Assembly: GCA_018830005.1 (NCBI GenBank)
Contig: JAHJTE010000001.1
Location: 193,332-257,331 of the forward strand
Length of the DNA: 64,000 nt
Direction of reading: 5' to 3'
From: Candidatus Omnitrophota bacterium
Lineage (GTDB): Bacteria; Omnitrophota; Gorgyraeia; JAHJTE01
Shown: piece after piece, positions 38,176 through 58,347 of the stretch
How positions within the stretch are numbered: position 1 is the stretch's first letter
How the letters are laid out: each line of letters begins with the position of its first letter
The notes under the pieces: model-generated
What the model was told of the DNA's origin: nothing
Seen by the model: only the letters and a program-made list of their open reading frames with translations
Database searches by the model: none
Position numbers and translations under genes: made by a program

Positions 38176-39285
38176 ATGATAAACCAAGGTGATTACGATA
38201 AATTTCAAGCAAGATTAATCAAGAAGGCAAGGAACAAGGCCTTTCCTCTTAAGGCAATGTTTGAACTTACCTATAGGTGTAACCTTAAATGCCGACACTG
38301 CTATGTGTGCGATGGCGAGAATAGAAAAGAATTACAAACCCAGGAGGTCTTTTCTATTCTTGATCAGTTGGCAGAGGCAGGATGTCTAAATTTAGGTTTT
38401 ACAGGAGGAGAGCCTTTCCTGCGAAAGGATATATTTGATATTTTAAGATATGCTAAGAATAAGGGATTTAATACCGTACTTTTGACCAATGCGACTTTGA
38501 TTGAAGAAGCTGATGCAGACAGGTTAAAAGAGTTGGGTCTAAATAAGATTGATGTATCTTTTCATACTAGGAAGCAAGAGGTTTTTGATTGGTTTACTCA
38601 AAGGCCTGGTACATATAAAAGAGTCTCAGAGGCAGTCAGGCTCTTAAGAAAAAAAGGCATTGATGTTTTTCTTAAAACGACTGCAATGACTATAAATAAG
38701 GATGAGATTTTAGCCTTGAGGCATCTTGCAGTAGAGAAATTTGGCGCACATTTTCGCTGGAGTTCGATAATAACTCCAGACCTAGAGGCTAATAAGGAGA
38801 ATTTGAGGTTTCGTTTAACAGCAGAGGATGTTAATTGTCTAGAGAAGCAGATTAGAGATGATAGTGTAATAGAATTTGAAAAACTAGACACCTTGGAAAA
38901 AATAAATAGAAAGTCAGCGAAAAGGCAAAGGCCTATTAGAAAGATAAATCATAACCAGCTGTTTCATTGTGGTGCAGGCAAAACAGAGGTTGTAATAGAC
39001 CCCTATGGCCAGATGAGATTATGTCTGGATATACCATTCCCAAAATACGATATTTTAAAGAGTAATTTCTCCCAAAGCTGGAAGATGTTAACTGATTTTG
39101 TAAGAGATACAGCTGGCGGGTCTAGTTATCAATGTCAAGACTGTGAACTTATTCAATATTGTAAGTCTTGTCCTGCGTATGCATGGCTTGAGTGCGGTGA
39201 CATCAGTGCTTGCCCGCCATATTTTAGAGAGCTGGCGCGTCTGGCAAAGATGGAATCCGAAACAGAGGATATAAAGATTGCATGA
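38176..39285 (+). CDS. Radical SAM/SPASM-domain enzyme #2
   Basis: 'CNLKCRHC'; 'FTGGEP'; SPASM-like 'CGAGKTEVVIDPYGQMRLC…CQDCELIQYCKSCP'. Confidence 0.8.
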   Translation: MINQGDYDKFQARLIKKARNKAFPLKAMFELTYRCNLKCRHCYVCDGENRKELQTQEVFSILDQLAEAGCLNLGFTGGEPFLRKDIFDILRYAKNKGFNTVLLTNATLIEEADADRLKELGLNKIDVSFHTRKQEVFDWFTQRPGTYKRVSEAVRLLRKKGIDVFLKTTAMTINKDEILALRHLAVEKFGAHFRWSSIITPDLEANKENLRFRLTAEDVNCLEKQIRDDSVIEFEKLDTLEKINRKSAKRQRPIRKINHNQLFHCGAGKTEVVIDPYGQMRLCLDIPFPKYDILKSNFSQSWKMLTDFVRDTAGGSSYQCQDCELIQYCKSCPAYAWLECGDISACPPYFRELARLAKMESETEDIKIA

Positions 39286-40193
39286 GGAAAGAACTTAGAT
39301 TAGAAATTGCCGGGATTGGATTTTTATTTCGTTATAATAATTGTCAGATTAAAGAAGGCAGATATAGTCCAGCATACCTTGAGGATTTTATTAAACCGGG
39401 TAATAATAGTGATTTCATTATTGATCTTGACGTGGGATCTCTTCCTGCAATTCCTAGGGGGAGGCTGTTGTTTGAATCAAAGGAGAATTGGCGTTCCTTT
39501 GCGCATAACGGAAGTTTCCTAATCGAGACTTACTATGGTAAGTCAGAGATAACCAGGGTTTGTGTAATAAATAAAGATCTAAGTAAGGCAAAGGTATATA
39601 TCTCACCCTGGACAGACGAATTTGATAAAAAGAAAAGACTTAAAAACAATCCTCCCAAGAACTGGTCACTGGAGACATTTTTTTCTGTTTTAGGCCAGCT
39701 TATTTTAATCAACCTATTACATAAATATCAGGGGCTTCTTTTGCATGCCTGTGGTGTAGTTGTTGATGGTGCGGGATTAGTTTTTCCCGGGATATCAGGC
39801 GCAGGCAAGACGACTCTGACAAGGTTATGGCAGAAGAGGGGTGGCCTTGGCCTATTAAGCGATGATCGGGTAATTATTCGAAAGATAAATAAAGAATATT
39901 TTGTTTCTGGAAGCCCTTGGCCAGGCGAGGCCAGGATTGCCTCTGGTAAATCAGCGCCGCTTAGTAAAATCCTGTTTCTTTCCAAGGCCAATCAAAATAA
40001 ACTCAAAGCCCTAGGAAAAAGAGAAAGTCTATATCTGCTTATGAGGCAGTGTTTTCCTCCTATATGGGATAGACAGGCGATTGATTTTTTTCTTAAGTTT
40101 TGCGCAAGTCTAGTCGAAGATGTCCCCTGTTTTTCATTTGGTTTTGTTCCGGATGAAAGCGCGCTAGATTTTATTTTAAAAAACCACTCATGA
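39282..40193 (+). CDS. HPr kinase C-terminal-domain-like (HprK-related) P-loop protein #1
   Basis: 'LLLHACGVVVDGAGLVFPGISGAGKTTL' and 'LLSDDRVII' resemble HprK/P catalytic core; ATGA overlap with upstream rSAM. Confidence 0.65.
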   Translation: MRKELRLEIAGIGFLFRYNNCQIKEGRYSPAYLEDFIKPGNNSDFIIDLDVGSLPAIPRGRLLFESKENWRSFAHNGSFLIETYYGKSEITRVCVINKDLSKAKVYISPWTDEFDKKKRLKNNPPKNWSLETFFSVLGQLILINLLHKYQGLLLHACGVVVDGAGLVFPGISGAGKTTLTRLWQKRGGLGLLSDDRVIIRKINKEYFVSGSPWPGEARIASGKSAPLSKILFLSKANQNKLKALGKRESLYLLMRQCFPPIWDRQAIDFFLKFCASLVEDVPCFSFGFVPDESALDFILKNHS

Positions 40194-41293
40194 TTAAAGA
40201 GTTAAGATTTAGGAAAGAATTTACAGAAAGGCTGGAGCGAAAGCGCGATAAGATGGATTTTCCCCGCAATGTAATTTTTGAGATTACACATCAATGCAAT
40301 CTGCGTTGTCGGCATTGCTATGTAGTGCCAGATTCCAGAAAAAAAGAATTAACGACTTCGCAGGTTAAATCAGTTTTTAAGCAATTAGTTGATGTAGGTT
40401 GTCTTCATCTGACCTTAACTGGTGGTGAGCCTTTAGTGCGGCCGGATATCATTTCCTTGATTGACTATGCCCGCAGGCTAGGGCTTTTTATCCATCTTTT
40501 TACCAATGCCACCCTTATAAATCTTGAGATTGCTGATAAATTAGGAGAGCTTAGCCTTACATCCTTAGAGATATCTTTTCACAGTCTTAAGCCTAAACGT
40601 TTTGATTCCTTTACTAGAGTGGAAGGTTCTTTTGATTCGGTGATGAAGGCAATCAGGCTTGTTAAAGAGAGAAAAGAAAGCATTGCCTTAAAGATAAACA
40701 TAACCAAGGCAAACCTTGATGAGATTGATGATTTCAAAGAGTTTGCGAATGATTTAGACGCGGTCATTGAATGGGGAACTATTCTTAGACCAAGGAATGA
40801 TGGTTCACAGGATAATCTATCTTTACGTCTTGAGCCAGAAGAGGCATTAAAGCTAGGCTATATGCTTGGTCTTGAATCTATTCTTGATGAGCCAATACAT
40901 AATAATAAAGAATGTCATCCTCCAGAAAATAAACTCACCAAGCCAAATAGAAATAGGATAGAGAGCGAGTTATTTCGTTGTGGGATCGGCAGTGAAGGTT
41001 TAGTTATTGACCCCTACGGAGAATTAAAGCCTTGTCTTGTGCTTGGCCTTTTAGGCTATTCTATTTTTGATAGCAGTCTAAAGCAGGCATGGATAAATTT
41101 AAGAGCTGATTTGAATTCAATGAAACCGACAGCTGATTATAAATGTCTTGATTGTAATCTAGGGCATTATTGTTCATCTTGTCCAGCAAGAGCGAAACTT
41201 GAATGTAATGATATGAACTCATGTCCTGATTATTATCGTCGGCTGGCAGAATTAAGGTGTCAAAATAATGGCTATAAGAATTCAAGAATATAA
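40190..41293 (+). CDS. Radical SAM/SPASM-domain enzyme #3
   Basis: 'CNLRCRHC'; 'LTGGEP'; 'CGIGSEGLVIDPYGELKPC…CLDCNLGHYCSSCP'. Confidence 0.8.
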   Translation: MIKELRFRKEFTERLERKRDKMDFPRNVIFEITHQCNLRCRHCYVVPDSRKKELTTSQVKSVFKQLVDVGCLHLTLTGGEPLVRPDIISLIDYARRLGLFIHLFTNATLINLEIADKLGELSLTSLEISFHSLKPKRFDSFTRVEGSFDSVMKAIRLVKERKESIALKINITKANLDEIDDFKEFANDLDAVIEWGTILRPRNDGSQDNLSLRLEPEEALKLGYMLGLESILDEPIHNNKECHPPENKLTKPNRNRIESELFRCGIGSEGLVIDPYGELKPCLVLGLLGYSIFDSSLKQAWINLRADLNSMKPTADYKCLDCNLGHYCSSCPARAKLECNDMNSCPDYYRRLAELRCQNNGYKNSRI

Positions 41294-42389
41294 GGACTTT
41301 AGCTTGAGGCTTCATGATAAAGGTTCAAGAAAGCCGATTCTGGGACAATTTGAGCTCACCCATAACTGCAATCTTGCTTGTCAGCATTGTTATGTTGTAA
41401 ATGAACCCCAAAGGCAGGAACTTTCTTACAGTGAGCTTTGCCGTATCTTTGATGAAGTTTATGAACAAGGATGTTTCTGGCTCTGTTTTACTGGAGGCGA
41501 GCCCCTGTTGCGGAAAGATTTTCTTGATATTTACTCATATGCCTACAAAAAAGGATTTCTTATTAGTATCTTTACTAATGCGACACTTTTTAATGAGAAT
41601 ATAGCAGGACACCTTAAGGATTTTCCGCCCTTTTGCATTGAGGTAACCTTGAATGGCATTACTAAAAAAACATACGAATTAATTAGCCAAAGGCCGGGTT
41701 CTTTTGAGCTAGCAATGCGCGGCATTGAACTTATCCGAAAGTTTAAGCTCCCCTTAAAGTTAAAATGCCAGATAATGACTTTAAATATAGATGAGATCGA
41801 TTTGATGCGTAAATTTTATGATAAGATGAACATGGCTTTTCTTTGCAGTCTGATAATTAACCCACGCTTAGACGGTTCGACTCAGACCACTTCTTTGCGT
41901 TTGCCGATTGAGAAAATATTGGAACTTAGAAGGCAAAAAGAAGGACTAGCTGAATGTAGTGATTCTTCAAGGGATATCTTAGGTATGTTGATGCTTCCAG
42001 ATAAGAAAGAAGACATTTTTTTAGAGGAAGATTCATCATTTGACGGGGATAATGAATTAAACCTTGCCTCTGATGCGCTGTTTCGTTGTCCAGGAGGAAC
42101 ATGGGCATTCTATGTTAATCCTTATGGTGAACTTTGTTTTTGTAATTCGCTAAGAGAGCCAGCGTGGGATTTGCGCAAGAATTCATTCAAGCAAGGTTTT
42201 TATGAATTTTTTCCAAAGATTCGCTCAGAGAAGTTTAAAACCGATTCTAAATGCCGAGATTGCGATATCAAGTCAGACTGCCTTAGTTGTCCGGCAAGGG
42301 CTTATTTAGAGACAGGTGATAGAGAGGCCCCTTTGCCCTATTATTGTGAGTTGGCTCAAAAAAACAGGAAGAAAGAAATCAGGACTTAA
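41268..42389 (+). CDS. Radical SAM/SPASM-domain enzyme #4
   Basis: 'CNLACQHC'; 'FTGGEP'; 'CPGGTWAFYVNPYGELCFC…CRDCDIKSDCLSCP'. Confidence 0.8.
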   Translation: MAIRIQEYKDFSLRLHDKGSRKPILGQFELTHNCNLACQHCYVVNEPQRQELSYSELCRIFDEVYEQGCFWLCFTGGEPLLRKDFLDIYSYAYKKGFLISIFTNATLFNENIAGHLKDFPPFCIEVTLNGITKKTYELISQRPGSFELAMRGIELIRKFKLPLKLKCQIMTLNIDEIDLMRKFYDKMNMAFLCSLIINPRLDGSTQTTSLRLPIEKILELRRQKEGLAECSDSSRDILGMLMLPDKKEDIFLEEDSSFDGDNELNLASDALFRCPGGTWAFYVNPYGELCFCNSLREPAWDLRKNSFKQGFYEFFPKIRSEKFKTDSKCRDCDIKSDCLSCPARAYLETGDREAPLPYYCELAQKNRKKEIRT

Positions 42390-42398: not shown

Positions 42399-44009
42399 AT
42401 GAATAGTAGGCGTTTACGTGTCGGCATAATATCACGAAAGAATTTAGGTTCATTAAACAGCCTAAGCTGTAGGGTGCTTTTTAAAAACGCCTTAAAGATC
42501 GTTGAGAGTAGATTCAATGCGTGCTGTTGCTTCCTGAATAGCTCTACTAACTCAAACAAGAAGGAGATAGCACTTAAGAAGCTTACCTCTTCTTGCGATG
42601 TGATTTTGGAATTAGCTCCAGGGCAAATGTTTGATATAAAGGCCAAATCAATACCTAGAGTCTTTTTTGCACTTGGTTTTATGTCAAATCCTTTCAATCT
42701 CATGGCTAGCTTTAACAGAAAACTCATGACAGCCAATTCCGTTCTTTTCTCATGCAAAGCGGATTTGGAAATGTTTAATAAAATATTTGGCAAGACAGGA
42801 CGCAGTATGGGCTATATTGTGCCTTTCCCTCTAGAAGTTAATGAATTCAAACCACAAAGTGAGCTTGAAAATAAACGCATGCGAGAAAGATTTGGTATTG
42901 GAGGAGATGTCTTTCTTATCTTGTATGCGGGAAGAATTAACGTGCAGAAGAATATACACACATTACTTAAGATATTTAGAGAGGCCATTAAGAGATTTCC
43001 GCAAACAAGACTTTGTATAGCCGGCGAAGAAGACAGGGGTGGCTTTGAAGAGTTTGGTATTAGTAATAATGGATATACCGGCTATATTAGGAGGAAATGC
43101 CTTGAATACGGGATTGCCGATAAAGTAATATTTACTGGAAAATTAAAAAGAGAAGACCTTATATCTTTATATTCAAGTGCTGATGTTTTCATGAATTGTA
43201 CTATCAGCCAGTATGAAAATTTTGGCTATTCCCAGGTTGAGGCTATGGCCTGCGGCACGCCGGTTATTTGTTCGCATTGGGGTGGATTGAAAGATACAGT
43301 TATTCATGGTAAGTGCGGTTATCATATGCCAACCATACTTAGCAATAACGGCGTAAAGGTTGACTGGCAAAGTGGCTTAAGGCAGTTGATAGGTCTCTTA
43401 GAAGATAAGGATAGACTCAAAGAAATGTCAAGACAGGCAAGAGAACACGCAAAGCTAAACTTCTCTTTCGATAGATTTGCTAAGATGTTAGAATTCGTAC
43501 TTTTAGATACAATGAAGCGCAATAATAAGAATAAAAAACACCACTATTTGCTAAAGATTAAAAAAGAAAATCCTCATTTTATGAATTTATTCATGGAGTA
43601 TCTGTATGTAAACCGTAAAAATTACAAGAAGGGGCCGGTCTGTGTGAATAGCCCCAAAAGCCTCTTCTTTAGGCGAAATTATAGTCACTATAAATCTTTT
43701 ATAAAAGCCTACAGTTCTCTATCTGGTTCTGAAATGCTTAAAAGAAATGGCTCCATACCCTACTTTCTACAGGATGTCAGACTTATGTATAAAGGGCAGC
43801 GCCTTTATATCCAAGATCCTCTCTGGCCAGCAAGATACAGATTAGAGGATTGGCAATTTAGAATTGCCTCAGTTATTGATGGCAATAGAAGCCTGGAGGA
43901 TATTAATTCTAATTTTATACACAGGGGTTTTAAAAAAAGGAGAGATTCGCTTAAGAGGTTCTATAAGCATCTTGCTGAAGAGGGCGTAGTATCATTTCTT
44001 AGTAATTAG
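42399..44009 (+). CDS. GT4-family (GT-B) glycosyltransferase with C-terminal PqqD/RRE-like domain
   Basis: GT4 C-domain 'FLILYAGRINVQKNIHTLL…CIAGEED…NFGYSQVEAMACGTPVICSHWGGL'; C-terminal ~70 aa 'RIASVIDGNRSLEDINSNF…SLKRFYKHLAEEGVVSFL' resembles PqqD. Confidence 0.6.
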   Translation: MNSRRLRVGIISRKNLGSLNSLSCRVLFKNALKIVESRFNACCCFLNSSTNSNKKEIALKKLTSSCDVILELAPGQMFDIKAKSIPRVFFALGFMSNPFNLMASFNRKLMTANSVLFSCKADLEMFNKIFGKTGRSMGYIVPFPLEVNEFKPQSELENKRMRERFGIGGDVFLILYAGRINVQKNIHTLLKIFREAIKRFPQTRLCIAGEEDRGGFEEFGISNNGYTGYIRRKCLEYGIADKVIFTGKLKREDLISLYSSADVFMNCTISQYENFGYSQVEAMACGTPVICSHWGGLKDTVIHGKCGYHMPTILSNNGVKVDWQSGLRQLIGLLEDKDRLKEMSRQAREHAKLNFSFDRFAKMLEFVLLDTMKRNNKNKKHHYLLKIKKENPHFMNLFMEYLYVNRKNYKKGPVCVNSPKSLFFRRNYSHYKSFIKAYSSLSGSEMLKRNGSIPYFLQDVRLMYKGQRLYIQDPLWPARYRLEDWQFRIASVIDGNRSLEDINSNFIHRGFKKRRDSLKRFYKHLAEEGVVSFLSN

Positions 44010-44033
44010 TTTAAGAGCATTTGAAAGAAATAT

Positions 44034-45113
44034 ATGAGCAGAAAAACTTATTTTGATTTACTTTACAGACTAAAGGATAATATCTTTCCTTTAAGGGCAC
44101 AGATAGCATTAACCTATAGGTGTAACTTAAACTGCGTTCATTGTTTCGAGAATAAGGACAGTCGAGATGAGTTAACCCTTTCAGAAATAAAAGATATATT
44201 AAATCAGCTAAAAGATCTGGGTTGTTTGCGGCTAAATTTTACAGGAGGAGAGTTATTTTTAAGAAAAGATGTATTAGAGATTTTCGAGCTTGCGCGCAGG
44301 ATGAATTTTGACTTTAGCCTAATAACTAACGCTACGCTCCTAACAGAAGGCCTAGTCAGGAATATTAAAAAATTTAATCCTTCAACGATACAGATTAGTC
44401 TCTATGGGGCAACTAAGAAGGTCTATGAATCTATTAGCAATGTTTCTGGCTCTTTTAAGAAAACATTAGATGCAATTTCACTTTTAAAGGTGCATAATCT
44501 AAAATTAAGAATAGCTACAGTTGTAATGCGCCAGAATTTTCACGAAATAAAAATTATAAGACAGATGGCCAGAATTAATAAATGGAATTTGATAACAGAT
44601 TATTGCATATCGCCAGGATATAATGGTTCAAGAGTTCCTTTAAAATGCAGAATGACTCAAAATCAGCTTAAGAAAGCTGTTACTGAACTTAAGTCAGAAG
44701 GCAGGTATTTAAAAAAAATGAACACTATCTCTAAAGAAAGGCTTTTCTGTCTTTTATCTTTTTGTCAGCATGAGTGTTATATTTCAGCACAGGCAGATGT
44801 GTTTCCATCATGTACTTTAAGAATGAAACTAGGCAGCCTAAGAGAAAAATCCTTTGAAGAAATCTGGAGAGATTCCCAAGTTGCCAAGACCTTAAGGGGC
44901 TTGAAAAAAGAGGAGTTATATTGTCTGCGTTGTAGGCTTTTTTTCTACTGTTGTTTTGACAAAGGCATGGCCTGGTTGGAGCATGGAGATTTTAGGCTTC
45001 CAGCAAAAGAGATATGCAGGGTAATGAAGGCAGGAATAAGGAGAGATGGTAAGCTCTTGCCGCCAGGATTAGTGTCAAAGGTTAAATTCCCGTCCACTAT
45101 TTCGTTTTCTTAG
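44034..45113 (+). CDS. Radical SAM/SPASM-domain enzyme #5 (divergent C-terminus)
   Basis: 'CNLNCVHC'; 'FTGGEL'; Cys-rich C-term 'CLLSFCQHECY…FPSC…CLRCRLFFYCCF'. Confidence 0.75.
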   Translation: MSRKTYFDLLYRLKDNIFPLRAQIALTYRCNLNCVHCFENKDSRDELTLSEIKDILNQLKDLGCLRLNFTGGELFLRKDVLEIFELARRMNFDFSLITNATLLTEGLVRNIKKFNPSTIQISLYGATKKVYESISNVSGSFKKTLDAISLLKVHNLKLRIATVVMRQNFHEIKIIRQMARINKWNLITDYCISPGYNGSRVPLKCRMTQNQLKKAVTELKSEGRYLKKMNTISKERLFCLLSFCQHECYISAQADVFPSCTLRMKLGSLREKSFEEIWRDSQVAKTLRGLKKEELYCLRCRLFFYCCFDKGMAWLEHGDFRLPAKEICRVMKAGIRRDGKLLPPGLVSKVKFPSTISFS

Positions 45114-45155: not shown

Positions 45156-45290
45156 ATGATGAGAAAGGATTCCAAAAAAATTTCAAAGACAAGAAATGCT
45201 AAGGACAAATATGAGAAGCCAAAACTTTTCAAATACAGAATGGTAGATGTTGCCAGTGCTTTAGTAGCTGGACAGATAGAACCTTTATGA
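45156..45290 (+). CDS. Unannotated small ORF, 44 aa: MMRKDSKKISKTRNAKDKYEKPKLFKYRMVDVASALVAGQIEPL; candidate precursor peptide
   Basis: Not in the six-frame track (<60 aa). Strong SD 'AAAGGGGG' at 45145-45152; tandem ATGs at 45156 and 45159; lies in the 284-nt gap between rSAM #5 and the stand-alone PqqD gene; Lys-rich N-terminal half, hydrophobic small-residue C-terminal half. Confidence 0.45.
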   Translation: MMRKDSKKISKTRNAKDKYEKPKLFKYRMVDVASALVAGQIEPL

Positions 45291-45408: not shown

Positions 45409-45699
45409 ATGGCCTTAAGGGAAGGATGCAATCGTTTTAAAATCCAGAAGGATAAAATTGCCCACCGCTTAATTAATAATGAAGTGGTAATTTTGCATTT
45501 AGAGCGTGGTCTTTATTTCAGTCTTAATAAAACCGCTACTTTTATCTGGAAACTTATAGAGCAAGGCAGGGATTTAGGCCAGATGTCAGAGGCGTTCGCT
45601 AAAAGGTTTGAATGCAAAGAGGCAGAGGCAATAAAGGATGTCAATGTCTTAATAGGCGATTTAGAAAAAGAAGGACTCATAGATAAGATTAAGAAATAA
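45409..45699 (+). CDS. Stand-alone PqqD-family (RRE) protein; start at ATG 45409 with GGAGG at 45399-45403 (track ORF starts at an upstream TTG)
   Basis: 96 aa; 'INNEVVILHLERGLYFSLNKTATFIWKLIEQGRDLGQM…KDVNVLIGDLEKEGLI' typical PqqD. Confidence 0.75.
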   Translation: MALREGCNRFKIQKDKIAHRLINNEVVILHLERGLYFSLNKTATFIWKLIEQGRDLGQMSEAFAKRFECKEAEAIKDVNVLIGDLEKEGLIDKIKK

Positions 45700-45776: not shown

Positions 45777-46982
45777 ATGAATATTGCTATTATTGCTCAT
45801 TCCTATTTGCCTGATGTTGGTGGTAGCCAGGAAACAATCAGGGGATTAGCTAAAGAATTTTCAAAGCAAGCTCATGAAGTAATTATTTTGGTACTTACTC
45901 CTGGCCCAGGCGGAGAATTCAAGAATGCAACAGAAAACCATTTTTTTAGATTTAAGGCATTCGAGGTTATTGAGGGGATAGATGTTCATAGACTACGCGT
46001 TCCTTTTCTAGGAGTTCCCCGCATAGGAATAAAAGGACTGATTGACACCTTAAGACTCCTTGTTTTTTTACCGGGTGTATTAATAAAATCAGCCAAGATA
46101 ATAAAAGACAATAAGATTCAGATAATTAATGTCCATTATGCAGGCATAAATGCATTTTGTACTTGGCTGCTTTCCTACCCACTCTCCTTAAAATACATAG
46201 TTACATTGCAGGGTTTTAATGTGCAGGTACTCCCATTTTTAAAAGGTTTGAGAGGATTTATTATTCGTTTTGTTTTTAAGTCTATATTGCAGCGCGCCAG
46301 TTTTGTTACTGCCTGTTCTGAGTATCTACTTAATGATGCAAAAGAAAGAGTCCCCCAGATAAGAAATAAGTCTTGTGTTATCCCCAATGGCATAGATTTG
46401 GATGAGTTTAAGCATAACGGCCGAAGTTTAATAGATTATCCCTACATCCTTTGCCTGGGAAGACTGCATGCACCCTTTAAAGGTTTTGATATTGCCCTGC
46501 TTGCACTCAAGGATATCCTAGATTCAGGCCTTGATATAAATCTGGTTCTAGCCGGAGACGGGCCAGATAGCGCTGAATATAAAAAACTTGCAGAATCTTT
46601 AAGCATAGAGAAAAATGTGCATTTCTTTGGTCTGGCCAACCGCGTAGAGGCAGTATATTTTATTAAAAACTGCCAATTCTTTGTGATGCCTTCACGCGTT
46701 GAACCTCTAGGTATTGTAAACTTAGAGGCCATGGCCTGTTCTAAGGCAGTCATTGCCTCAAGAGTAGGCGGTATACCAGAGGTAGTTGAGCACGGTGTAA
46801 ATGGGTTATTAGTTGAGCCTGCGGATGTCAAGGTGCTTGCTAGAGCCATAAAAAGATTATTAGTTGATAAGGACTTAAGAGTTAAACTCGGCAGAAACGG
46901 CAGGCGCATGCTAGAGGCTGGAGAATTTTCTTGGCAGAGGCTATCTCGTAGATACCTAAAACTGTATAGAGAATTTTTATAA
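45777..46982 (+). CDS. GT4-family glycosyltransferase (paralog a)
   Basis: 'YLPDVGGSQE'; 'LGRLHAPFKGFDIALLAL…LVLAGDGP', 'FVMPSRVEPLGIVNLEAMACSKAVIASRVGGIPEVV'. Confidence 0.8.
   Translation: MNIAIIAHSYLPDVGGSQETIRGLAKEFSKQAHEVIILVLTPGPGGEFKNATENHFFRFKAFEVIEGIDVHRLRVPFLGVPRIGIKGLIDTLRLLVFLPGVLIKSAKIIKDNKIQIINVHYAGINAFCTWLLSYPLSLKYIVTLQGFNVQVLPFLKGLRGFIIRFVFKSILQRASFVTACSEYLLNDAKERVPQIRNKSCVIPNGIDLDEFKHNGRSLIDYPYILCLGRLHAPFKGFDIALLALKDILDSGLDINLVLAGDGPDSAEYKKLAESLSIEKNVHFFGLANRVEAVYFIKNCQFFVMPSRVEPLGIVNLEAMACSKAVIASRVGGIPEVVEHGVNGLLVEPADVKVLARAIKRLLVDKDLRVKLGRNGRRMLEAGEFSWQRLSRRYLKLYREFL
46268..46793 (+). repeat. Copy A of duplicated GT4 segments, >98% DNA identity with 48599-49124 at a constant 2331-bp offset; identical blocks 46268-46566 and 46668-46793 separated by diverged sequence
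   Basis: Direct comparison of both copies; only about 3 mismatches in the 299-bp block. Confidence 0.85.
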
Positions 46983-46985
46983 ATA

Positions 46986-48122
46986 ATGCAGAATAATTCC
47001 TTCGACTTTAATTTAGCTTCAAAGATAAAGAACAAAGAGGCAGGCATAAGAGATATACGCAATAGGAATGGAATATGTGAAGGCTTGCCTGCGGTTTTAA
47101 CCATCGTTGATACTACAAGATGTAATTTAGACTGCATAATGTGTGTAAGAAATAAAGGCTACTTACAAACTGCTTTAAGGTCTTTTAAGCGCTATAGTCG
47201 GCGTAGAGATGAGACTGTCATGAATTTTAATCTGTTTAAAAAAATAGCCAGCGAGATGTTTCCTCATATTAGCCGAGTTTGCTTAAGCGTAGCAGGGGAG
47301 CCTTTTATTAATCCAAATTTTCCTAGACAGCTAGAGCTAATTGAATCCTATAAGGTTTGGCTAGACCTCTTTACTAACGCTACTCTCATACCCAAGGATG
47401 AGCTTTTGAGGAGATTAGTTAATAGGCTATCGCGCATGGTAGTTTCTATTGATGGCGCCAGCAAGAAGACTTACGAGAGCATAAGAAAAGGAGCTAGATT
47501 CCAGGAGGTTATAGATAATATTAAGCGTCTTAATACAGAAAGAATGAAGATAGATAAAGAAATAAGGCCTAAGCTCGTCTTCTGGTTTGTATTGATGAGA
47601 AGGAATATCGAGGAATTGCCAGAATATGTGCGCTTAGCCCATAGCCTGGGGGCAGACGGGATAGGTGCGGCGCATGTTACTATATTCAAGAAAAGCTTAG
47701 AGAAAGAATCGTTGGTTTATCACAAACAGTTAGCCAACCGCTATTTAAAACAGGCAAGAGATTTAATTGACAAATTGGGCCTGGAGACTTTTGATTTTCC
47801 TCCTTTGTTTTCGCAGGTTCCTGTTTCGCAAGATAAAGTTGATACTCCAATGCCTAATTCGCCGTGCAAATTTCTCTGGAGAGAGGCGGTCATTGAATTA
47901 AATGGAGATGTTTATCCTTGTTGTGCTCCCGAGAAAACCGGTTTACTGATGGGAAATGTCAGCAAGCAATCTTTCAGAGAAATCTGGAGTGGTAAGCGCT
48001 ATCAGATATTAAGGGCAAGTTTTGAGGATGGCTATTTATATCCACCTTGCAAGAATTGTTATCAACGATTAAAAGATCGTACCTCAGATAACAGCGGTAT
48101 CTATTTTTTCGAAAACGTATAG
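46986..48122 (+). CDS. Radical SAM/SPASM-domain enzyme #6
   Basis: 'CNLDCIMC'; 'VAGEPF'; C-term 'CKFLWREAVIELNGDVYPCCAP…CKNCYQRL'. Confidence 0.75.
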   Translation: MQNNSFDFNLASKIKNKEAGIRDIRNRNGICEGLPAVLTIVDTTRCNLDCIMCVRNKGYLQTALRSFKRYSRRRDETVMNFNLFKKIASEMFPHISRVCLSVAGEPFINPNFPRQLELIESYKVWLDLFTNATLIPKDELLRRLVNRLSRMVVSIDGASKKTYESIRKGARFQEVIDNIKRLNTERMKIDKEIRPKLVFWFVLMRRNIEELPEYVRLAHSLGADGIGAAHVTIFKKSLEKESLVYHKQLANRYLKQARDLIDKLGLETFDFPPLFSQVPVSQDKVDTPMPNSPCKFLWREAVIELNGDVYPCCAPEKTGLLMGNVSKQSFREIWSGKRYQILRASFEDGYLYPPCKNCYQRLKDRTSDNSGIYFFENV

Positions 48123-48143
48123 TTAGGCCTTAAGAAAGTAATT

Positions 48144-49325
48144 ATGAATATAACAATTTTTCCTCATGCCTATTTGCCTAGCGTAGGGGGCGTAGAAGAG
48201 GTAGTCAGAAATCTAGCCAGAGAATTTAAGGCAAAAGGCCATCGTGTAGGACTAATAGTATTTGTTCCACTTAGAAGATTCAGGGCACGTGAGATTATTG
48301 AAGGAATAGAAGTTAGAAGATTCTATGTTCCCTTTGTAATATTGCCCTATAGAGTGAGCTGGCGAGCTTTTCTTGATGTAGTTGAAATGCTTGTTTGTTT
48401 GCCTCTTGCCCTGGTTAGAATAGCGCGCATACTCAAAGAAAATAATAGCCAAATAATACACATACATTATATTGGCGTAAATGCATTTTATATTTGGTTG
48501 CTTTCCTATTTTCTCTCCTTAAAATACATCGTAAGTTTGCACGGCTTTAATTTACAAGTAATACCTTTCCTGAAAGGCGCAAGCAGAGCTGTTCTTAATT
48601 TTGTTTTTAAGTCTATATTGCAGCGCGCCAGTTTTGTTACTGCCTGTTCTGAGTATCTACTTGATGATGCAAAAGAAAGAGTCCCCCAGATAAGAAATAA
48701 GTCTTGTGTTATCCCCAATGGCATAGATTTGGATGAGTTTAAGCATAACGGCCGCAGTTTAATAGATTATCCCTACATCCTTTGCCTGGGAAGACTGCAT
48801 GCACCCTTTAAAGGTTTTGATATTGCCCTGCTTGCACTCAAGGATATACTAGATTCAGGCCTTGATATAAATCTGGTTCTAGCCGGAGACGGGCCAGCCC
48901 GCACTTCTTATGAGAGATTGATAAGATTATTAAAGATAGAGAAAAATGTGCATTTATTTGGTTTGGCAAATAGAAAAGATGCAGTAAATTTAATCAGAAA
49001 CTGCCAATTCTTTGTGATGCCTTCACGCGTTGAACCTCTAGGTATTGTAAACTTAGAGGCCATGGCCTGTTCTAAGGCAGTCATTGCTTCCAGAGTAGGC
49101 GGTATACCAGAGGTAGTTGAGCATGGCCTAACCGGATTATTAGTTGAGTCATGCAGCGAGAAAGCACTGGCTGCAGCGATAAAGCGACTTATGGAAGATA
49201 AGAATTTAAGAATCAGACTTGGCAGAAACGGCAGGCTTAAGGCTGAGCAACGTGGATTTTCTTGGGAGTTTATAGCCGATAAACATCTGGAGATATCAAA
49301 AGGATTTTTGAATTATGAAGATTGA
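48144..49325 (+). CDS. GT4-family glycosyltransferase (paralog b; divergent N-terminal half, near-identical C-terminal half to paralog a)
   Basis: 'YLPSVGGVEEVV'; C-terminal half identical at protein level over 'FKSILQRASFVTACSEYLL…GIDLDEFKHNGRSLIDYPYILCLGRLHAPFKGFDIALLALKDILDSGLDINLVLAGDGP'. Confidence 0.8.
   Translation: MNITIFPHAYLPSVGGVEEVVRNLAREFKAKGHRVGLIVFVPLRRFRAREIIEGIEVRRFYVPFVILPYRVSWRAFLDVVEMLVCLPLALVRIARILKENNSQIIHIHYIGVNAFYIWLLSYFLSLKYIVSLHGFNLQVIPFLKGASRAVLNFVFKSILQRASFVTACSEYLLDDAKERVPQIRNKSCVIPNGIDLDEFKHNGRSLIDYPYILCLGRLHAPFKGFDIALLALKDILDSGLDINLVLAGDGPARTSYERLIRLLKIEKNVHLFGLANRKDAVNLIRNCQFFVMPSRVEPLGIVNLEAMACSKAVIASRVGGIPEVVEHGLTGLLVESCSEKALAAAIKRLMEDKNLRIRLGRNGRLKAEQRGFSWEFIADKHLEISKGFLNYED
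48599..49124 (+). repeat. Copy B of duplicated GT4 segments (see 46268-46793)
   Basis: Same as copy A; tandem duplication unit of 2331 bp comprising GT4 + rSAM. Confidence 0.85.
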
Positions 49326-50427
49326 CCCCTTTGATTATACAATAGGCTTAAAGATAAAAAATATAGAGGCGGCCTTAAGGGATAGGGAATTTCAAAATAG
49401 CACCTGTGAATCTTTCCCTGCATCTTTAACCATTGCAGATACTACAAGATGTAATCTAGACTGTATAATGTGTCATCACCATTTGGCCAAGACATATACA
49501 AAGTCTGCAAGCAATATTAATATGGATTTTAATCTATTTTCGAAGATTGCCAAAGAGACATTTCCCCATATTAACCTTGTTAGTTTAAGTGTATCTGGAG
49601 AACCTTTCATTAATCCAAATTTTTCTAAAGAGTTAGAGTTAATCGCTTTCCACAAGGTTAAGTTAGGTATTATTACTAACGCCACACTCATGCCAAAAGG
49701 CGATAGCCTAAGGAGACTTGTTAATAATCTCTCTAGTATAATTGTTTCTATTGATGCTGCTAGCAAGAAAACTTACGAGGCTATAAGAAAAGGCGCTAGA
49801 TTCCAACAGGTTATCGATAACGTCAAGCGGCTTAATAGGGCAAGACTAAAATTCAGTAAAAGTTTTAGACCCAAGCTTATCTTCTGGCTAGTTTTGATGA
49901 GGAAAAATATTGAAGAGTTATCAGAATATGTGCGCTTAGCTCATGCTCTTAAGGCAGACGGGATAGGACTGGTCCACATGTCAATACATCATGAGAAATT
50001 AAAAAAAGAATCATTGATTTACCACAAGCGATTGACGAATCGCTGCTTAAAGGCAGCAAGAAAGCTAATAGATAGTTTTGGCATTGAAGTCTATAATATT
50101 GCACCTTTGTTTTCTTTTGGTAGGACACCCATTAAAAAGAGCTATTATACTTTAAACAAGAGACCTTGTAAATTTCCTTGGCGGGAGGCATTTATTGAAG
50201 TAAATGGTGATGTTTATCCTTGTTGTGCTCCGGACAAAAGTGGTTTATTGATGGGTAATGTTAGAGAGCAGACGTTTAGACAGATTTGGAATGGCAGGCG
50301 CTATCGATTATTGCGAACCAGCTTTAAAAACGGCAATCTATTTGCTCCTTGCAAGAACTGTTACCAAAGATTAAAAGATTATACCTCAGATATCAGCGGT
50401 ATCTATTTCCCGCCGCCTATTGCATGA
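49315..50427 (+). CDS. Radical SAM/SPASM-domain enzyme #7 (paralog of #6, ~55-60% aa identity)
   Basis: Same 'TTRCNLDCIMC' block; 'VSGEPF'; 'CKFPWREAFIEVNGDVYPCCAP…CKNCYQRL'. Confidence 0.75.
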   Translation: MKIDPFDYTIGLKIKNIEAALRDREFQNSTCESFPASLTIADTTRCNLDCIMCHHHLAKTYTKSASNINMDFNLFSKIAKETFPHINLVSLSVSGEPFINPNFSKELELIAFHKVKLGIITNATLMPKGDSLRRLVNNLSSIIVSIDAASKKTYEAIRKGARFQQVIDNVKRLNRARLKFSKSFRPKLIFWLVLMRKNIEELSEYVRLAHALKADGIGLVHMSIHHEKLKKESLIYHKRLTNRCLKAARKLIDSFGIEVYNIAPLFSFGRTPIKKSYYTLNKRPCKFPWREAFIEVNGDVYPCCAPDKSGLLMGNVREQTFRQIWNGRRYRLLRTSFKNGNLFAPCKNCYQRLKDYTSDISGIYFPPPIA

Positions 50428-52205
50428 AAATGTCAGAACAAATCCACAAAGAACAAGTCGCTAAAGACCTCCTTTATGAATCTATAAAAGATGGCAGGAA
50501 GCGATCTCTAAAGGTAATAGGTAGTTGTATGCATCCAGTGATACAGCCAGGGGATGAAGTATTTTTTGGAAAAAGAGAGAAGTTTAGATTCGGTGATTTA
50601 GTGGTTTACAGGCAAAGTCAGGGCTTTATTGTCCATAGGTTTATTAGAAAGGCAAAGGTTAATAACAAACTAGTTTTTATATTAAAGGCAGATAATCCCT
50701 CTGAACTTGAGGAATTCATCGGGCAGGATGAGATTATCGGCGTAGTTACTAAACTGAGACGTAACGGCAGGATTTTAATTATTGATACATTTGCAGGCAG
50801 ACTTACGAGTTTATTTTATTTCTGTCTGGCTAATTTAAATCTTGCTCAAAGTAGGCTAAAACAAAGGCATGAGCTCTTAGCTATTAAGGCACTGCCTGCT
50901 AGATTAAAGAGTATAATTTCTACTAAAGTCTTCAACCTAAAAGACGTTTTTGCCTTTGGGATAGTAGAGACTGAGCAAGATTCATTTTTGAAAGAAAGGA
51001 AGACATTAAAACTAGTCGCTAAAGATTCGCTTTGTAAGGATGAGGAAACGCAATTAATAGATTTATTGAAAAATGGCCTTGATTGGCAATACGTCCTAGA
51101 GAGAATTAAATGGAATTTTATCATACCTTTTTATATTCAAAAGCTAAAGAGTTTCGGCTGGGAGGAAGATTTATATAGAAGGAATCACTGTTTAGATTTA
51201 GAGAATATCCATAGACTTCAGCTTATACAGGATACAAAAACTAGGCTTATTCTAGACGGGGTATTAGGGGAATTTAATAAACATGGTATTAAGGTGCTCG
51301 TACTTAAAGGAGCTCATTTAGGAATAGAGGTTTATGAGGACAGTTCCCAGCGCTGGATGGGAGATATTGATTTAATCTTGAGAATAGAAGATTGGTCTAA
51401 GGCATGCAAGATCTTAAATGATTTGGGTTTTGTGCTTGATTGGTTTTGTAAAGACTATAATATTTGGAGCATAAGATATCTAGATAATCATATTGACTTT
51501 CGCAAGCAAGGTATAAAATTAGAATTAAAAACAGGCATTTGGGCCATAGATTTTCCTTATTTCAATTATAGTCTTTGGCAAGATGCCAGATTAAAGAGGA
51601 TAGGAAAAGCAGATATATATTTTCCTTCCTATGAGGATACTCTTCTGATAGCCTGCGTTAATCTCGTTCGCCATAATTTCTCAGGATTAATCTGGTTCCT
51701 GGACACAAAAAAGATCGTTGATAAATTTAAAGACTCATTAGATTGGGATGTATTTTTAGATAAAGTCTCTAGATACGATTTAGGAACCGCAGTTTATTAC
51801 GGACTTTATTTAACTGATAAGTTATTTTCTTTAACATTACCCCCTGATTTGTTAGCTAAATTTAAGCCGCCTAGATTGGTGGATAAATTATTCAATTTCT
51901 TCTGGGATAGGAAAGCGATATTACTTGAAAAGGAAGGCCTTGTATTTAAGAACAAGGTGCCTTTTGAGTGCGCTTTTGTTTTATTCTGCGGCAAGTTTAG
52001 TTTTAGGCCTGAAAAATTTGTAAGATATGTAGTATATTTATTAAAGCTGATTTTTCCTCCCCAAGACTTTATCAGAGATAAATACAAGATTAAAGTCAAT
52101 CTAGTTAGCCTATCAAGATGTTATTTAGTTAGATTGTTTAGTTTTTTATCTACGTTGTTTAGTTTGCTCTTTGACTTATTTGCGGATAAAGACAGGCGAG
52201 CCTAA
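50424..52205 (+). CDS. Two-domain protein: N-terminal S24/S26 (LexA/signal-peptidase-like) Ser-Lys peptidase domain + C-terminal nucleotidyltransferase-family domain (PF14907-like); start at ATG 50424 (ATGA overlap with rSAM #7 stop)
   Basis: 'VIGSCMHPVIQPGDEVFF…GDLVVYRQSQGFIVHRFIRK' resembles the S26/S24 Ser…Lys fold; C-term 'LKGAHLGIEVYEDSSQRWMGDIDLILRIEDW' typical of the uncharacterised NTase family. Confidence 0.55.
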   Translation: MKMSEQIHKEQVAKDLLYESIKDGRKRSLKVIGSCMHPVIQPGDEVFFGKREKFRFGDLVVYRQSQGFIVHRFIRKAKVNNKLVFILKADNPSELEEFIGQDEIIGVVTKLRRNGRILIIDTFAGRLTSLFYFCLANLNLAQSRLKQRHELLAIKALPARLKSIISTKVFNLKDVFAFGIVETEQDSFLKERKTLKLVAKDSLCKDEETQLIDLLKNGLDWQYVLERIKWNFIIPFYIQKLKSFGWEEDLYRRNHCLDLENIHRLQLIQDTKTRLILDGVLGEFNKHGIKVLVLKGAHLGIEVYEDSSQRWMGDIDLILRIEDWSKACKILNDLGFVLDWFCKDYNIWSIRYLDNHIDFRKQGIKLELKTGIWAIDFPYFNYSLWQDARLKRIGKADIYFPSYEDTLLIACVNLVRHNFSGLIWFLDTKKIVDKFKDSLDWDVFLDKVSRYDLGTAVYYGLYLTDKLFSLTLPPDLLAKFKPPRLVDKLFNFFWDRKAILLEKEGLVFKNKVPFECAFVLFCGKFSFRPEKFVRYVVYLLKLIFPPQDFIRDKYKIKVNLVSLSRCYLVRLFSFLSTLFSLLFDLFADKDRRA

Positions 52206-55304: not shown

Positions 55305-56102
55305 ATGAAAATACGCTTATACATCGGATTATTACTTTTGAAAATTACCGAAACGTTCAATCTCATGGGCAGGATATTTAAAAATATTTTACTAGTAGTT
55401 CTCCTGCCTCAGGATCTAAGCAGCCTTAATAAATTAGCTTATAATAATAAGGGTAATCTAAATGCGCTCTCAAGTTTGGCAACGCGAGGGCTAAATGAAG
55501 GAGAGAAGGAATTAATTTCTAAATATTGTCTTAAGCCGGGTAAGTTTCTAGTCTTAGGCTGCGGTGCAGGCAGGGAAACTTATGCATTGGCAAAGATGGG
55601 TTTTGTTGTTACGGGTATTGATTTCGTAGAGACCTTGTTAGGAAAGGCAAGAGCTGTAGCAGAAGAAGAACAGTTGAGGATAGAATACATTAATAAAGAT
55701 ATTCTTTTATGGGCCGAGGAAGAGAGAAAAGAAAAATACGATTATATCCTTGTTTCAAATAATGTCTATCTGCAGATTCCTTCAAAAAAAATACGGATTA
55801 ATTTTCTTAATAGGGCGCTTAATAAATTATCTGATGATGGCCTTTTTATTGTAATTAATAACTGCATATCTGATCTTAAATACTCTAAAATTCAGTTTAA
55901 ATTAAAAAGGCTCTTGGCAAGAATCATGTTCGCAAATGTCGGAATAGAAGCAGGCGACTGGATACCAATTCGTCAATTCTTTCACCGGCCGCAAAATAAG
56001 AATGAATTTTTAACTGAATTTCAAGATAGCGAAGCCTTAATCTATGAGGTTAGAGAAGATAAGAATCTTATTTCGGTTTTGCTAAAACATTCAAATGGAT
56101 AA
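55305..56102 (+). CDS. Class I SAM-dependent methyltransferase
   Basis: Motif I 'FLVLGCGAGRETYAL', motif II 'YDYILVSNNV'. Confidence 0.7.
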   Translation: MKIRLYIGLLLLKITETFNLMGRIFKNILLVVLLPQDLSSLNKLAYNNKGNLNALSSLATRGLNEGEKELISKYCLKPGKFLVLGCGAGRETYALAKMGFVVTGIDFVETLLGKARAVAEEEQLRIEYINKDILLWAEEERKEKYDYILVSNNVYLQIPSKKIRINFLNRALNKLSDDGLFIVINNCISDLKYSKIQFKLKRLLARIMFANVGIEAGDWIPIRQFFHRPQNKNEFLTEFQDSEALIYEVREDKNLISVLLKHSNG

Positions 56103-58347
56103 GAAGTTAAAAGAAGACATTGAAGTTAATGAGAGAGGGCTAGAGGTCCCTTGTCAGGATAGCAAGCTTTCACAACTATGCTGTGAGTATTCTGATTTAC
56201 TGCCCTGTTGTAATGCCCTTATCCCAAGGGGAAAACGTTTTAGGGACCGGGCTAAAATATTATGGGGTAAGGTGAGTTTTCTAGACCTTTTTGAACTAAA
56301 GAAGGAACTTCTAAAAACAGATTATTTTAAATTTAAAACAACAAGTTGGTGCATGTTTCCAGTCTTAAAAAAAGGCGATACGTTAAAGATTGAATCTTGT
56401 AGTTTGAATGATTTAAAAATAGGTGAAATACCAGTTTATCGTAGAAATAATAGATTATATTCACATCGAATTGTGGATAAGCATATTCTAGAAGGAAAGG
56501 AGCGGATAATAACAAGACCAGATACAGCTAAGGTCAGGAAGGGCCTCTTGCAAGAAGAGCTAGAAGAGGAGGATTTATTAGGCAAAGTAAGGGAAGTAGA
56601 AAGAGACAAAAAGAGATTTCCTCTAGAAAAAAGGGAAGCTAATTTTTGGGAGAAATTCTTATACACCAGACATAAACTCTCCTTGGCTTTATTGAAATTA
56701 TTGTCTCGTGTTTCTATGAAAACTTTAACATGCATTCAATCTCTTTGGATTTATAGATGGTTAGGAAAAAAGCTAATTAAAAGATTGGAACCCAATATAG
56801 ATTTCCAACTCGCCACACCCTCAAGGCACAAGTTAGAAATATATGAATATACACCATTAGAAAAAAGAGATAATTTTCGACCAAGAGAATATAAAAATTT
56901 TCATATTATTATGAAATCAAAAGATACGCCTATAGGATGCATTACATTCTTGAACAGAGATAAGAATTGTCCATATACAGGTTTTTGGTTAGCTGAGCTG
57001 TGGATCAGGCTTAGATATAGAGGGCTGGGCCTGGAGTCGTTTTTAGTCAACAGAGCGCAAGATTTTTTAAGAGAACGCGACCTAGAGCACATTTCTTATC
57101 CAAGGCCTCCTGTTGTGCTAAAGCGTTCTTTTTTGAGGGCTCCGCTTTATTTTAACAGCCAGGAGTTATTGATTGTTTTATCCAAGGATAAAACAGATGA
57201 AGATCTGACTAAGAGGGCACTTAGCCTTATCAGGGCCGGAATTGATTGGGATGTATTTTACAAGTTAGTTATAGCCAGTGGCAAACCCGCGGCTATAATG
57301 AAACATATAAAGTTTTTAAGTGGTCTTGAGGCGGTTGGTCATTCTGCAATTGACAGATTAAAGGGAGCCTTCTTTGATACGATTGACTCTACTACACGAA
57401 ATCACAGGCAGTTATTGGATATACTCAAGGAGTTCTCAAAAGCAAAAATTAGCGTTATTCCTTTAAAAGGTACATATTTATCCCAAAGACTCTACGGAGA
57501 TATCTCACTGCGAGGAAAGAATCTAGATATTGATTTGTTGATAAAAGAGCAGGATATAGAGAGGGCAACGGCTTTATTGAAAGGATTAGGCTATAAAGAA
57601 AGACCAGAAGAAGAAATTAGCATCTGGCGTTGGCAGAAGACATTCTCTAAAGAAGGTTTTGCCTTTCTAGAGTTACAGTGGGATATTACAATGATGCTTA
57701 GAGACAGCCAGAGGATAGAAGGGTTATGGCAAAGCGCTGATAATGTCAAGATTCATTTAGAAGGAGTAGACTTGAATATTTGTCAATGGGACAATGAAGC
57801 GCTCCTTCTTTATCTTTGCGTAACTTTAATTAATAGTAGTGGTTATAGAGATTTAAGATATTTCTTTGATATTTTTCAATTGCTAGAGAACACAAGCACA
57901 TCTTTTGACTGGGGTGCTTTTATTAAAAAGGCTAGAAGATACAAGATTAATAATTCTGTATTTGCCAGCTTGCTAAAAGCAAATGAAATCCTGAATGCAA
58001 AAGTTCCCAAGCCTGTGTTAGAGGAGTTAAAGCCGTCTTTCTTAAAAGGAATATTAATACGTATTTTCTTAAGCCGGAGTGTGATATTTACTGATAATCT
58101 AAGAAGAAGGTTTATGGATAATTTTTTAAGTTATATCTTTTTTGAGCTGCTTGAGGCAAATTCAGCTAGAGATTACCTAAGGATCGTAAAAAGAGTAATG
58201 TTTCCGCCTCGGGAGCTTCTAGAGATTCGCTTTGATAATCCAGCTTCGGCAAGAATTAGTATTTCCTCAAATTGGCAATATTCTCTCTGCGTCCTAAAGA
58301 GGCTTTGTAAGTCTTTCAGTCTCATAGGGAGAATTCTTGTAAGATAA
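56095..58347 (+). CDS. Three-domain protein: Cys-rich N-terminal segment + S24/S26-like peptidase + GNAT-like acetyltransferase + nucleotidyltransferase-family (PF14907-like) domain
   Basis: 'PCQDSKLSQLCCEYSDLLPCCNAL'; 'TTSWCMFPVLKKGDTLKI…YSHRIVDK' (S26-like); 'RLRYRGLGLESFLVNRA' (GNAT motif A-like); C-terminal 'GKNLDIDLLIKEQD' NTase-like; 8-nt overlap with MTase gene. Confidence 0.5.
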   Translation: MDKKLKEDIEVNERGLEVPCQDSKLSQLCCEYSDLLPCCNALIPRGKRFRDRAKILWGKVSFLDLFELKKELLKTDYFKFKTTSWCMFPVLKKGDTLKIESCSLNDLKIGEIPVYRRNNRLYSHRIVDKHILEGKERIITRPDTAKVRKGLLQEELEEEDLLGKVREVERDKKRFPLEKREANFWEKFLYTRHKLSLALLKLLSRVSMKTLTCIQSLWIYRWLGKKLIKRLEPNIDFQLATPSRHKLEIYEYTPLEKRDNFRPREYKNFHIIMKSKDTPIGCITFLNRDKNCPYTGFWLAELWIRLRYRGLGLESFLVNRAQDFLRERDLEHISYPRPPVVLKRSFLRAPLYFNSQELLIVLSKDKTDEDLTKRALSLIRAGIDWDVFYKLVIASGKPAAIMKHIKFLSGLEAVGHSAIDRLKGAFFDTIDSTTRNHRQLLDILKEFSKAKISVIPLKGTYLSQRLYGDISLRGKNLDIDLLIKEQDIERATALLKGLGYKERPEEEISIWRWQKTFSKEGFAFLELQWDITMMLRDSQRIEGLWQSADNVKIHLEGVDLNICQWDNEALLLYLCVTLINSSGYRDLRYFFDIFQLLENTSTSFDWGAFIKKARRYKINNSVFASLLKANEILNAKVPKPVLEELKPSFLKGILIRIFLSRSVIFTDNLRRRFMDNFLSYIFFELLEANSARDYLRIVKRVMFPPRELLEIRFDNPASARISISSNWQYSLCVLKRLCKSFSLIGRILVR

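Follow-up and report, generated by a model that had tools for sequence, protein, structure and literature searches.

We analyzed two adjacent gene pairs within a 64-kb window of DNA from a Candidatus Omnitrophota bacterium (contig JAHJTE010000001.1 of assembly GCA_018830005.1, positions 193,332 to 257,331; coordinates below are those of the window). Four open reading frames (ORFs) running in one direction form two tandem units, each pairing a family-4 glycosyltransferase (GT4) with a radical S-adenosylmethionine (rSAM)/SPASM protein, namely GT4-A with rSAM-A and GT4-B with rSAM-B. Both glycosyltransferases matched Glyco_transf_4 and Glycos_transf_1 above the Pfam cutoffs (61.5 and 149.7 bits in GT4-A), and both partner proteins matched PF04055 (Radical_SAM) and PF13186 (SPASM) above cutoffs, with the CNLDCIMC (CX3CX2C) motif and the SPASM cysteines conserved in the rSAM alignment. 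The ORFs, the domains and the pairwise alignment bear out the tandem duplication proposed in a first-pass annotation of this DNA. The spacing of exactly 2331 bp given there applies to 46044-46975 only; the offset is 2367 nt at the GT4 5' end, where indels include a 13-residue insertion in A, and 2329 and later 2302 nt in the rSAM genes. At the amino acid level, the two GT4 proteins are 69% identical overall, with 52% identity across the N-terminal 163 residues and 50% in the C-terminal tail, and the rSAM proteins are 61.5% identical; the divergence of about 50-60% identity annotated for the N-terminal halves and the rSAM partners is right for the former and slightly too low for the latter. Within the GT4 genes, two short blocks are nearly identical, a mosaic that very probably reflects recurrent ectopic gene conversion between the tandem GT4 paralogs after an old duplication.

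Base-by-base comparison showed 99.0% nucleotide identity between A and B in block 1 (Table 1). Block 2 as first delimited (46668-46793 versus 48999-49124) has 3 mismatches in 126 nt, which at 97.6% falls short of the >98% initially reported for both blocks, and reaches 98.4% at the best-fitting boundaries listed in the table. Within the blocks as first delimited, six positions tell the copies apart, at 46332, 46424, 46517, 46757, 46760 and 46793 in A and 2331 nt farther along in B. The 100 nt separating the blocks are about 70% identical at the nucleotide and 53% at the amino acid level, the flanks of the blocks are 50-80% identical in a global alignment of the units, and the longest exact run shared by A and B within the blocks is 92 nt. 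Synonymous (dS) and nonsynonymous (dN) divergence was estimated by segment with the Nei-Gojobori method. Between A and B, dS is 1.37 in the N-terminal, 1.32 in the pre-block and 1.40 in the C-terminal segment, whereas block 1 has 0.044 and block 2 has 0.107, with a dN of 0 in the latter. Third-position mismatches follow the same pattern, with 2/100 and 2/42 in the blocks versus 36/74 and 30/61 in the flanks. As silent differences are nearly gone from the blocks, protein-level purifying selection, which cannot erase them, is insufficient as an explanation. When mismatch positions were shuffled over the 932-nt ungapped alignment, an exact run of at least 92 nt or a window of at least 299 nt with no more than 3 mismatches arose in 0 of 20,000 permutations of all sites, and shuffling restricted to third codon positions likewise failed to reproduce the block pattern (0/20,000).

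Table 1 Features of the tandem GT4 and rSAM units and of the neighboring genes, in window coordinates
Feature	Position	Strand	Basis or remark
GT4-A, retaining GT-B family-4 glycosyltransferase, 401 aa; probable recipient of block 1	45777..46982	+	ORF, Pfam, AlphaFold, Foldseek
rSAM/SPASM-A, partner of GT4-A, 378 aa	46986..48122	+	ORF, Pfam, alignment motifs
GT4-B, paralog of GT4-A, 393 aa; probable donor of block 1	48144..49325	+	ORF, Pfam, tree
rSAM/SPASM-B, paralog of rSAM-A, 370 aa	49315..50427	+	ORF, Pfam
Conversion block 1, GT4-A copy, aa 164-263	46268..46566	+	299 nt, 3 mismatches to GT4-B copy
Conversion block 1, GT4-B copy	48599..48897	+	Base-by-base comparison
Diverged inter-block patch, GT4-A, aa 264-297	46567..46666	+	Counterpart 48898-48997 in GT4-B
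Conversion block 2, GT4-A copy, aa 298-339	46667..46792	+	126 nt, 2 mismatches to GT4-B copy
Conversion block 2, GT4-B copy	48998..49123	+	Base-by-base comparison
Candidate RiPP precursor, 43 aa, Y-x-K-P-x-L-x-K-Y leader motif	45159..45290	+	Called gene; 5 loci
Discrete PqqD-type RiPP recognition element	45409..45699	+	PF05402, 63.7 bits
Signal-peptidase-I/S24-like + NTP_transf_5 fusion, directly after the duplicated units	50424..52205	+	Pfam/NCBIfam

Two further sources of similarity were considered and set aside. A third copy acting as conversion donor was rejected because no further copy of either block occurs within the 64-kb window; the third GT4 and rSAM pair (42399-45113) belongs to different subfamilies and shares just chance-level matches of 20-25 nt. 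An older conversion immediately upstream of block 1 (46104-46265, 73-82% identical) was also discarded, as the dS of 1.32 marks this stretch as a conserved protein segment.

Orthologues of both units were identified through exact-protein look-ups. Among the closest homologues of GT4-A, one (P0001) is A-like and carries the insertion of A, and another (P0003) is B-like with the N-terminus and C-terminal tail of B; both come from the NCBI metagenome GCA_044344285.1. In this metagenome, contig L003 holds GT4-A' and rSAM-A' and ends within rSAM-A', and contig L004 starts 36 nt before GT4-B' and continues with rSAM-B'. The two contig ends overlap by 14 nt, indicating the same tandem layout as in the window. 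Scans of genome and metagenome contigs with a GT4 alignment returned, among the matches listed, generic GT4 genes of at most 39% identity and no orthologues. The 13-residue insertion (aa 43-55 of GT4-A, 45903-45941, in the N-terminal domain) is common to A and A', is lacking in B, B' and every single-copy homologue, and is modeled with a predicted local distance difference test score (pLDDT) below 50.

Segment-wise neighbor-joining trees with bootstrap were built from A, B, A', B' and three single-copy outgroups. The N-terminal segment groups (A,A') and (B,B'), each at 100%. In block 1, the grouping becomes (A,B) at 100% and (A,B,B') at 85%; in the inter-block patch B falls with B' at 69%; block 2 gives (A,B) at 100% and (A',B') at 99%; and the C-terminal segment gives (A',B') at 100%. 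The grouping thus changes from orthology to within-genome exactly at the blocks, and the N-terminal and rSAM segments that flank them follow the orthology tree. In the tree of the rSAM genes, all four paralogs form one clade against three single-copy outgroups (100%), with (rB,rB') at 100% and (rA,rA') at 86%. The presence of orthologues of both copies, together with the tree, shows that the duplication predates the split of the two organisms and that block homogenization came later. Comparison with related genomes therefore dates the duplication as old, since dS outside the blocks is saturated and each paralog has a separate orthologue in the related organism. The collapse of dS at the blocks and the switch in the segment trees support gene conversion, one of the two causes offered in the first-pass annotation.

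The other cause offered there places the duplication in the recent past and has strong diversifying selection act afterwards on the acceptor domain and the rSAM partner, in which case the blocks would be residual identity. The low identity of the N-terminal halves agrees with this view, as does the nucleotide distance between them, which is about equal to their distance to single-copy homologues. However, diversifying selection raises dN and not dS, and silent sites beyond the blocks have reached saturation (dS 1.3-1.4); the related organism has separate orthologues of A and of B, with 100% bootstrap; and dN/dS of the N-terminal halves within orthologous pairs is about 0.2, which means that both copies have been kept under constraint. 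A recent duplication with diversifying selection is thereby refuted, and we regard it as extremely improbable. A single GT4 and rSAM/SPASM unit in the same cassette was present in seven other related loci that we recovered (L165, from an Omnitrophota metagenome-assembled genome (MAG), and L166, L167, L168, L169, L170 and L171), and an eighth (L172) has one GT4 without an rSAM partner. The duplication is restricted to the clade of the window organism and the L003/L004 organism.

The related organism also bears on whether the blocks could be held identical by purifying selection at the nucleotide level, through an embedded RNA, a promoter or an overlapping gene. An antisense ORF of 231 aa (46442-47137, minus strand) does overlap GT4-A and would fit such a constraint. 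This ORF is probably spurious, with no ORF of at least 80 aa listed opposite the matching part of GT4-B. Furthermore, silent sites in block 1 have diverged freely between orthologues (dS 2.5 for A-A' and 0.8 for B-B'), and A' and B' are not homogenized there, leaving nucleotide-level selection with hardly any probability.

Instead, the relative has a tract of its own (L003 5832-7058 / L004 37-1218, window-equivalent 46670-46910, 88-97% identity) that covers block 2 and about 120 nt downstream without block 1. Between A' and B', dS is 0.43 and 0.39 over block 2 and the C-terminal segment versus 1.0-2.0 elsewhere, and a window of 76 third-position sites with 9 mismatches was reached in none of 300 permutations. 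As this tract is independent and differently placed, conversion has been recurrent.

Near-identical repeats in metagenomic data also raise the question of an assembly artefact, in which a short-read assembler collapsed, bubble-merged or mis-joined two paralogs that are in truth more diverged. The window does derive from a MEGAHIT-style short-read contig (k141_343398; ENA ERZ27247117, 552 kb), and other assemblies falter at the same place. A contig from a closely related strain (L174, GCA_043815545.1) opens with 141 nt of copy A (46616-46756, equivalent to 48947-49087 in B) and goes on as copy B. It is identical to copy B from nt 52, placing the switch inside a 90-nt shared run of block 2 (51 + 90 = 141). 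In the MAG behind this contig, GT4-A and GT4-B are represented just by incomplete proteins located where contigs end, and a Logan contig (run SRR6514730) breaks inside block 2, starting 30 nt (k-1, k = 31) into a shared 32-nt run. The L174 junction is either a graph artefact at k = 141 or a real recombinant or deletion haplotype. On the other hand, proteins identical to all four of the window, with consecutive accessions (MBU2540522-25), occur on a separate 848-kb contig of a Candidatus Omnitrophica MAG at NCBI. The contig name implies a k of 141, which exceeds the longest exact run of 92 nt, such that 141-mers and 150-nt reads always carry a copy-specific base, and bubble merging cannot raise an identity of about 70% to 99% across 299 nt. 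The phasing of the window copies, with an A-type patch behind the A N-terminus and a B-type patch and tail behind the B N-terminus, agrees with A' and B', the phenomenon recurs in a separate metagenome with another tract, and contigs that break at a repeat argue for the presence of that repeat in the reads. Given the identical proteins in a second assembly, we consider an artefact very unlikely.

The direction of transfer could be read from the orthologues in block 1. There, A and B lie at a distance of 0.20 from B' and 0.29 from A' (A'-B' 0.32), and 53 informative sites are B'-like versus 26 that are A'-like. By these distances and site patterns, B was most likely the donor and A the recipient of block 1, and it is for block 1 only that the direction is well supported.

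A variant of gene conversion would invoke a single long tract spanning 46268-46792, with the central 100 nt restored or replaced in a later event. The dS of the inter-block patch (0.55) is below that of the outer flanks, and L174, which joins A-type inter-block sequence to a B-type tail, could be a real variant with another tract. The patch, however, tracks orthology, with B next to B' in the tree and A- and B-type residues matching A' and B', and at 33 codons its dS difference is weak evidence. Granted that conversion is right, this course of events is rather unlikely; as a variant of the preferred explanation, it is not to be added to the other alternatives.

Several points weigh against recurrent conversion as set out here. 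The evidence comes from assemblies alone, all apparently short-read, and the two that agree may share source data; L174 shows that assemblers can cross between copies A and B in block 2. L003 and L004 are separate bulk-metagenome contigs, whose origin from the same genome is deduced from synteny and the 14-nt overlap. B-to-A transfer in block 1 is supported by a single orthologue pair and the 85% bootstrap, informative sites in block 2 are split 4 versus 4 and favor neither direction, and the lowered dS of the 33-codon patch is without explanation.

The sequence of events that best accounts for these data begins with tandem duplication of a GT4 and rSAM/SPASM tailoring unit in the common ancestor of the window bacterium and the related uncultured organism. 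The units then diverged to saturation at silent sites, after which the GT4 genes very probably exchanged sequence repeatedly by nonreciprocal homologous recombination between direct repeats 2.3 kb apart. The latest events in the window genome homogenized the 299 nt of block 1 and the 126 nt of block 2, and the related lineage independently homogenized block 2 with about 120 nt downstream. The tracts fall in the best-conserved portion of the gene, in which RecA pairing may be seeded by short exact matches, and each conversion event may ease the next. Either selection or sequence divergence could preserve the differences in the acceptor-side N-terminal domain, a surface patch (aa 264-297), the C-terminal tail and the rSAM partners.

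To place the blocks in the protein, we used an AlphaFold model of GT4-A (pLDDT 83.7), which shows a GT-B, two-Rossmann fold and matched MshA, BshA and PglA in Foldseek with template modeling scores of about 0.8. GT4-A shares with these retaining family-4 enzymes the fold, the EX7E motif and the conserved Arg/Lys pair. The best sequence match among solved structures is BshA of B. anthracis (E = 8e-27). However, identity to these enzymes is just 20-25%, and all NCBIfam matches are far below cutoffs. The last N-domain strand ends by residue 201, and the strands of the C-domain lie between 223 and 346. Block 1 covers the last beta-alpha-beta of the N-domain, the NGID linker and C-beta1-alpha1-beta2, in which R229 and K235 are invariant. 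The patch that stays diverged corresponds to C-alpha2, C-beta3 and C-alpha3, block 2 to C-beta4, the EX7E helix (E309 and E317 invariant) and C-beta5, and the diverged aa 340-401 to the last C-domain strand and the C-terminal helices. The first description of the blocks as confined to the donor-binding half is roughly right, with the qualifications that block 1 has its start some 40 residues within the N-terminal domain and that much of the C-terminal part is not homogenized. The converted segments are the most conserved relative to the outgroups (distance 0.26-0.39 versus 0.35-0.48 elsewhere) and are therefore consistent with homology-seeded recombination.

The first-pass annotation takes this pattern as expected of paralogs that act on different residues or peptides with one sugar donor, and it is reasonable to suppose that the two GT4 paralogs may share a donor and differ in acceptor. 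A stronger proposal is that the tract boundaries themselves are selected, whereby recurrent conversion in independent lineages would keep the donor-binding and catalytic core identical for one donor, and conversion into the N-terminal domain, the aa 264-297 patch or the rSAM partners would be purged. We hold this to be doubtful, though conceivable. If true, it would represent concerted evolution in modular form, affecting half an enzyme, inside a biosynthetic cassette for a peptide that is ribosomally synthesized and then modified post-translationally (RiPP) resembling those for linear polyphosphorylated peptides (LPPs), and the L174 junction would reflect recombinants still segregating in the population.

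In the rSAM genes, a short island of raised identity lies in the SPASM region (47874-47934 / 50176-50236, 82-85% between A and B), and a matching island occurs in L003/L004 (A'-B' 88-95%). From the alignment, it could be a micro-conversion or simply a conserved Cys-rich motif. Comparison of the rSAM partner with solved structures yielded just weak SPASM-region matches to BtrN and anSME, which are uninformative on substrate.

The tufA/tufB genes and rRNA operons are classic cases of bacterial concerted evolution. Gene conversion and concerted evolution among bacterial paralogs are established (PMC6053082), and the GT4 genes resemble such cases in that within-genome paralogs are closer than orthologues in part of the gene, with silent-site homogenization and recurrence in independent lineages. 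They differ in that the genes encode accessory tailoring enzymes of an uncultured phylum rather than dosage-sensitive core genes, and in that conversion is partial and would leave the proteins functionally distinct, as suggested by the 52% identical N-terminal domains. Gene conversion has also been described in assembly-line polyketide synthases as GRINS, repeats with intense nucleotide skew (PMC8256042). The present case shares with GRINS intra-cluster conversion and sharp-edged near-identical segments in diverged repeated enzymatic units, but involves separate GT4 genes instead of polyketide synthase modules. GC and AT skews checked in and around the blocks were unremarkable, with no GRINS-like skew; GC skew in block 1 (about -0.03 to 0.1) is within the range across the region. 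The GT4 genes are thus a well-supported new instance of an established process, with independent recurrence in two lineages, and possibly a recombinant that still segregates, as additional twists. They offer a clean natural case in which partial conversion holds one portion of two tailoring enzymes identical as the remainder specializes, which is relevant to the diversification of biosynthetic clusters. In practical terms, domain-level trees or identities of these GT4 paralogs are misleading if the converted tracts have not been masked, and at these repeats short-read assemblies break or cross from one copy to the other.

The duplicated units lie within a cassette of about 36.4-58.3 kb (36374-58347) containing seven rSAM/SPASM, three GT4, two PqqD-like and two HprK-like genes, two genes that fuse a signal-peptidase-I/S24-like domain to NTP_transf_5, an MsbA-like ABC exporter and a methyltransferase. 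Clusters for LPPs, a class of RiPPs, were recently described (PMC13381572), and three components of such clusters are present here, namely a discrete RiPP recognition element (RRE), NTP_transf_5 (137.7 and 134 bits) and ABC_membrane with ABC_tran, with MsbA models among the top matches of the transporter. The nearest NCBIfam models of the RRE (45409-45699) are lasso-type PqqD chaperones, below cutoffs. Peptidase_S24 scored 27 bits (cutoff 23.3) and TIGR02228 (sigpep_I_arch) 38 and 30 bits, below its cutoff of 51.85; the second fusion, at 56095-58347, also carries a GNAT domain. The HprK-like proteins gave partial, subthreshold matches to TIGR04352 (61 bits, cutoff 200) and Hpr_kinase_C (22 bits, cutoff 33.3), along with precomputed PF27840 (ScmC) hits.

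A small ORF precedes the PqqD gene in five loci (the window 45159-45290, L003 5244-5399, L168 ~3104-3241, L165 8273-8389 and L169 2297-2443), encoding a peptide whose N-terminus is basic, which contains the motif Y-x-K-P-x-L-x-K-[Y/F] and which has a variable tail of 12-25 residues. It is likely a RiPP precursor, with a leader that resembles the RRE-bound YxxPx[L/V] motif of lasso peptides and LPPs. The short leader motif YxxPx[V/L] is present in all five loci (YEKPKL) and, together with the gene set, suggests a link between the cassette and LPP clusters, whereas the extended motif YxxPxVLxHQxIxFETxxS is absent. The cassette differs further from LPP clusters in its Omnitrophota instead of Bacillota host, in the fusion of the peptidase domain to the NTP transferase where LPP clusters have it standing alone, and in the added seven rSAM/SPASM and three GT4 genes. 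Tailoring of paeninodin-type lasso peptides is also known to involve HprK-like kinases and nucleotidyltransferases (PMC9266682). Neither the macrolactam synthetase (Asn-synthetase-like C protein) nor the B2 transglutaminase-like peptidase of a lasso cluster was found in the ORFs scanned at 34954-58347. From this gene context, the GT4 and rSAM units are probably accessory tailoring modules of an LPP-like pathway. For follow-up, the LPP-like cassette, which has no report from Omnitrophota in PMC13381572, is probably more interesting than the conversion itself and may merit separate study.

The upstream half of the cassette (36374-42389) comprises four rSAM genes, a PqqD-like gene encoding 175 aa (37480-38007) and an HprK-like gene (39282-40193, precomputed ScmC PF27840 hit). 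It is reminiscent of the SynChlorMet cassette, yet every NCBIfam score is far below cutoff. Downstream of the cassette lie Wza and Wzc polysaccharide-export genes (60567-63541). Finally, ORF 18373-19419, for which the Pfam scan gave no match, contains a tandem internal repeat of about 130-140 nt (18982-19121 versus 19138-19265, 84% identity).

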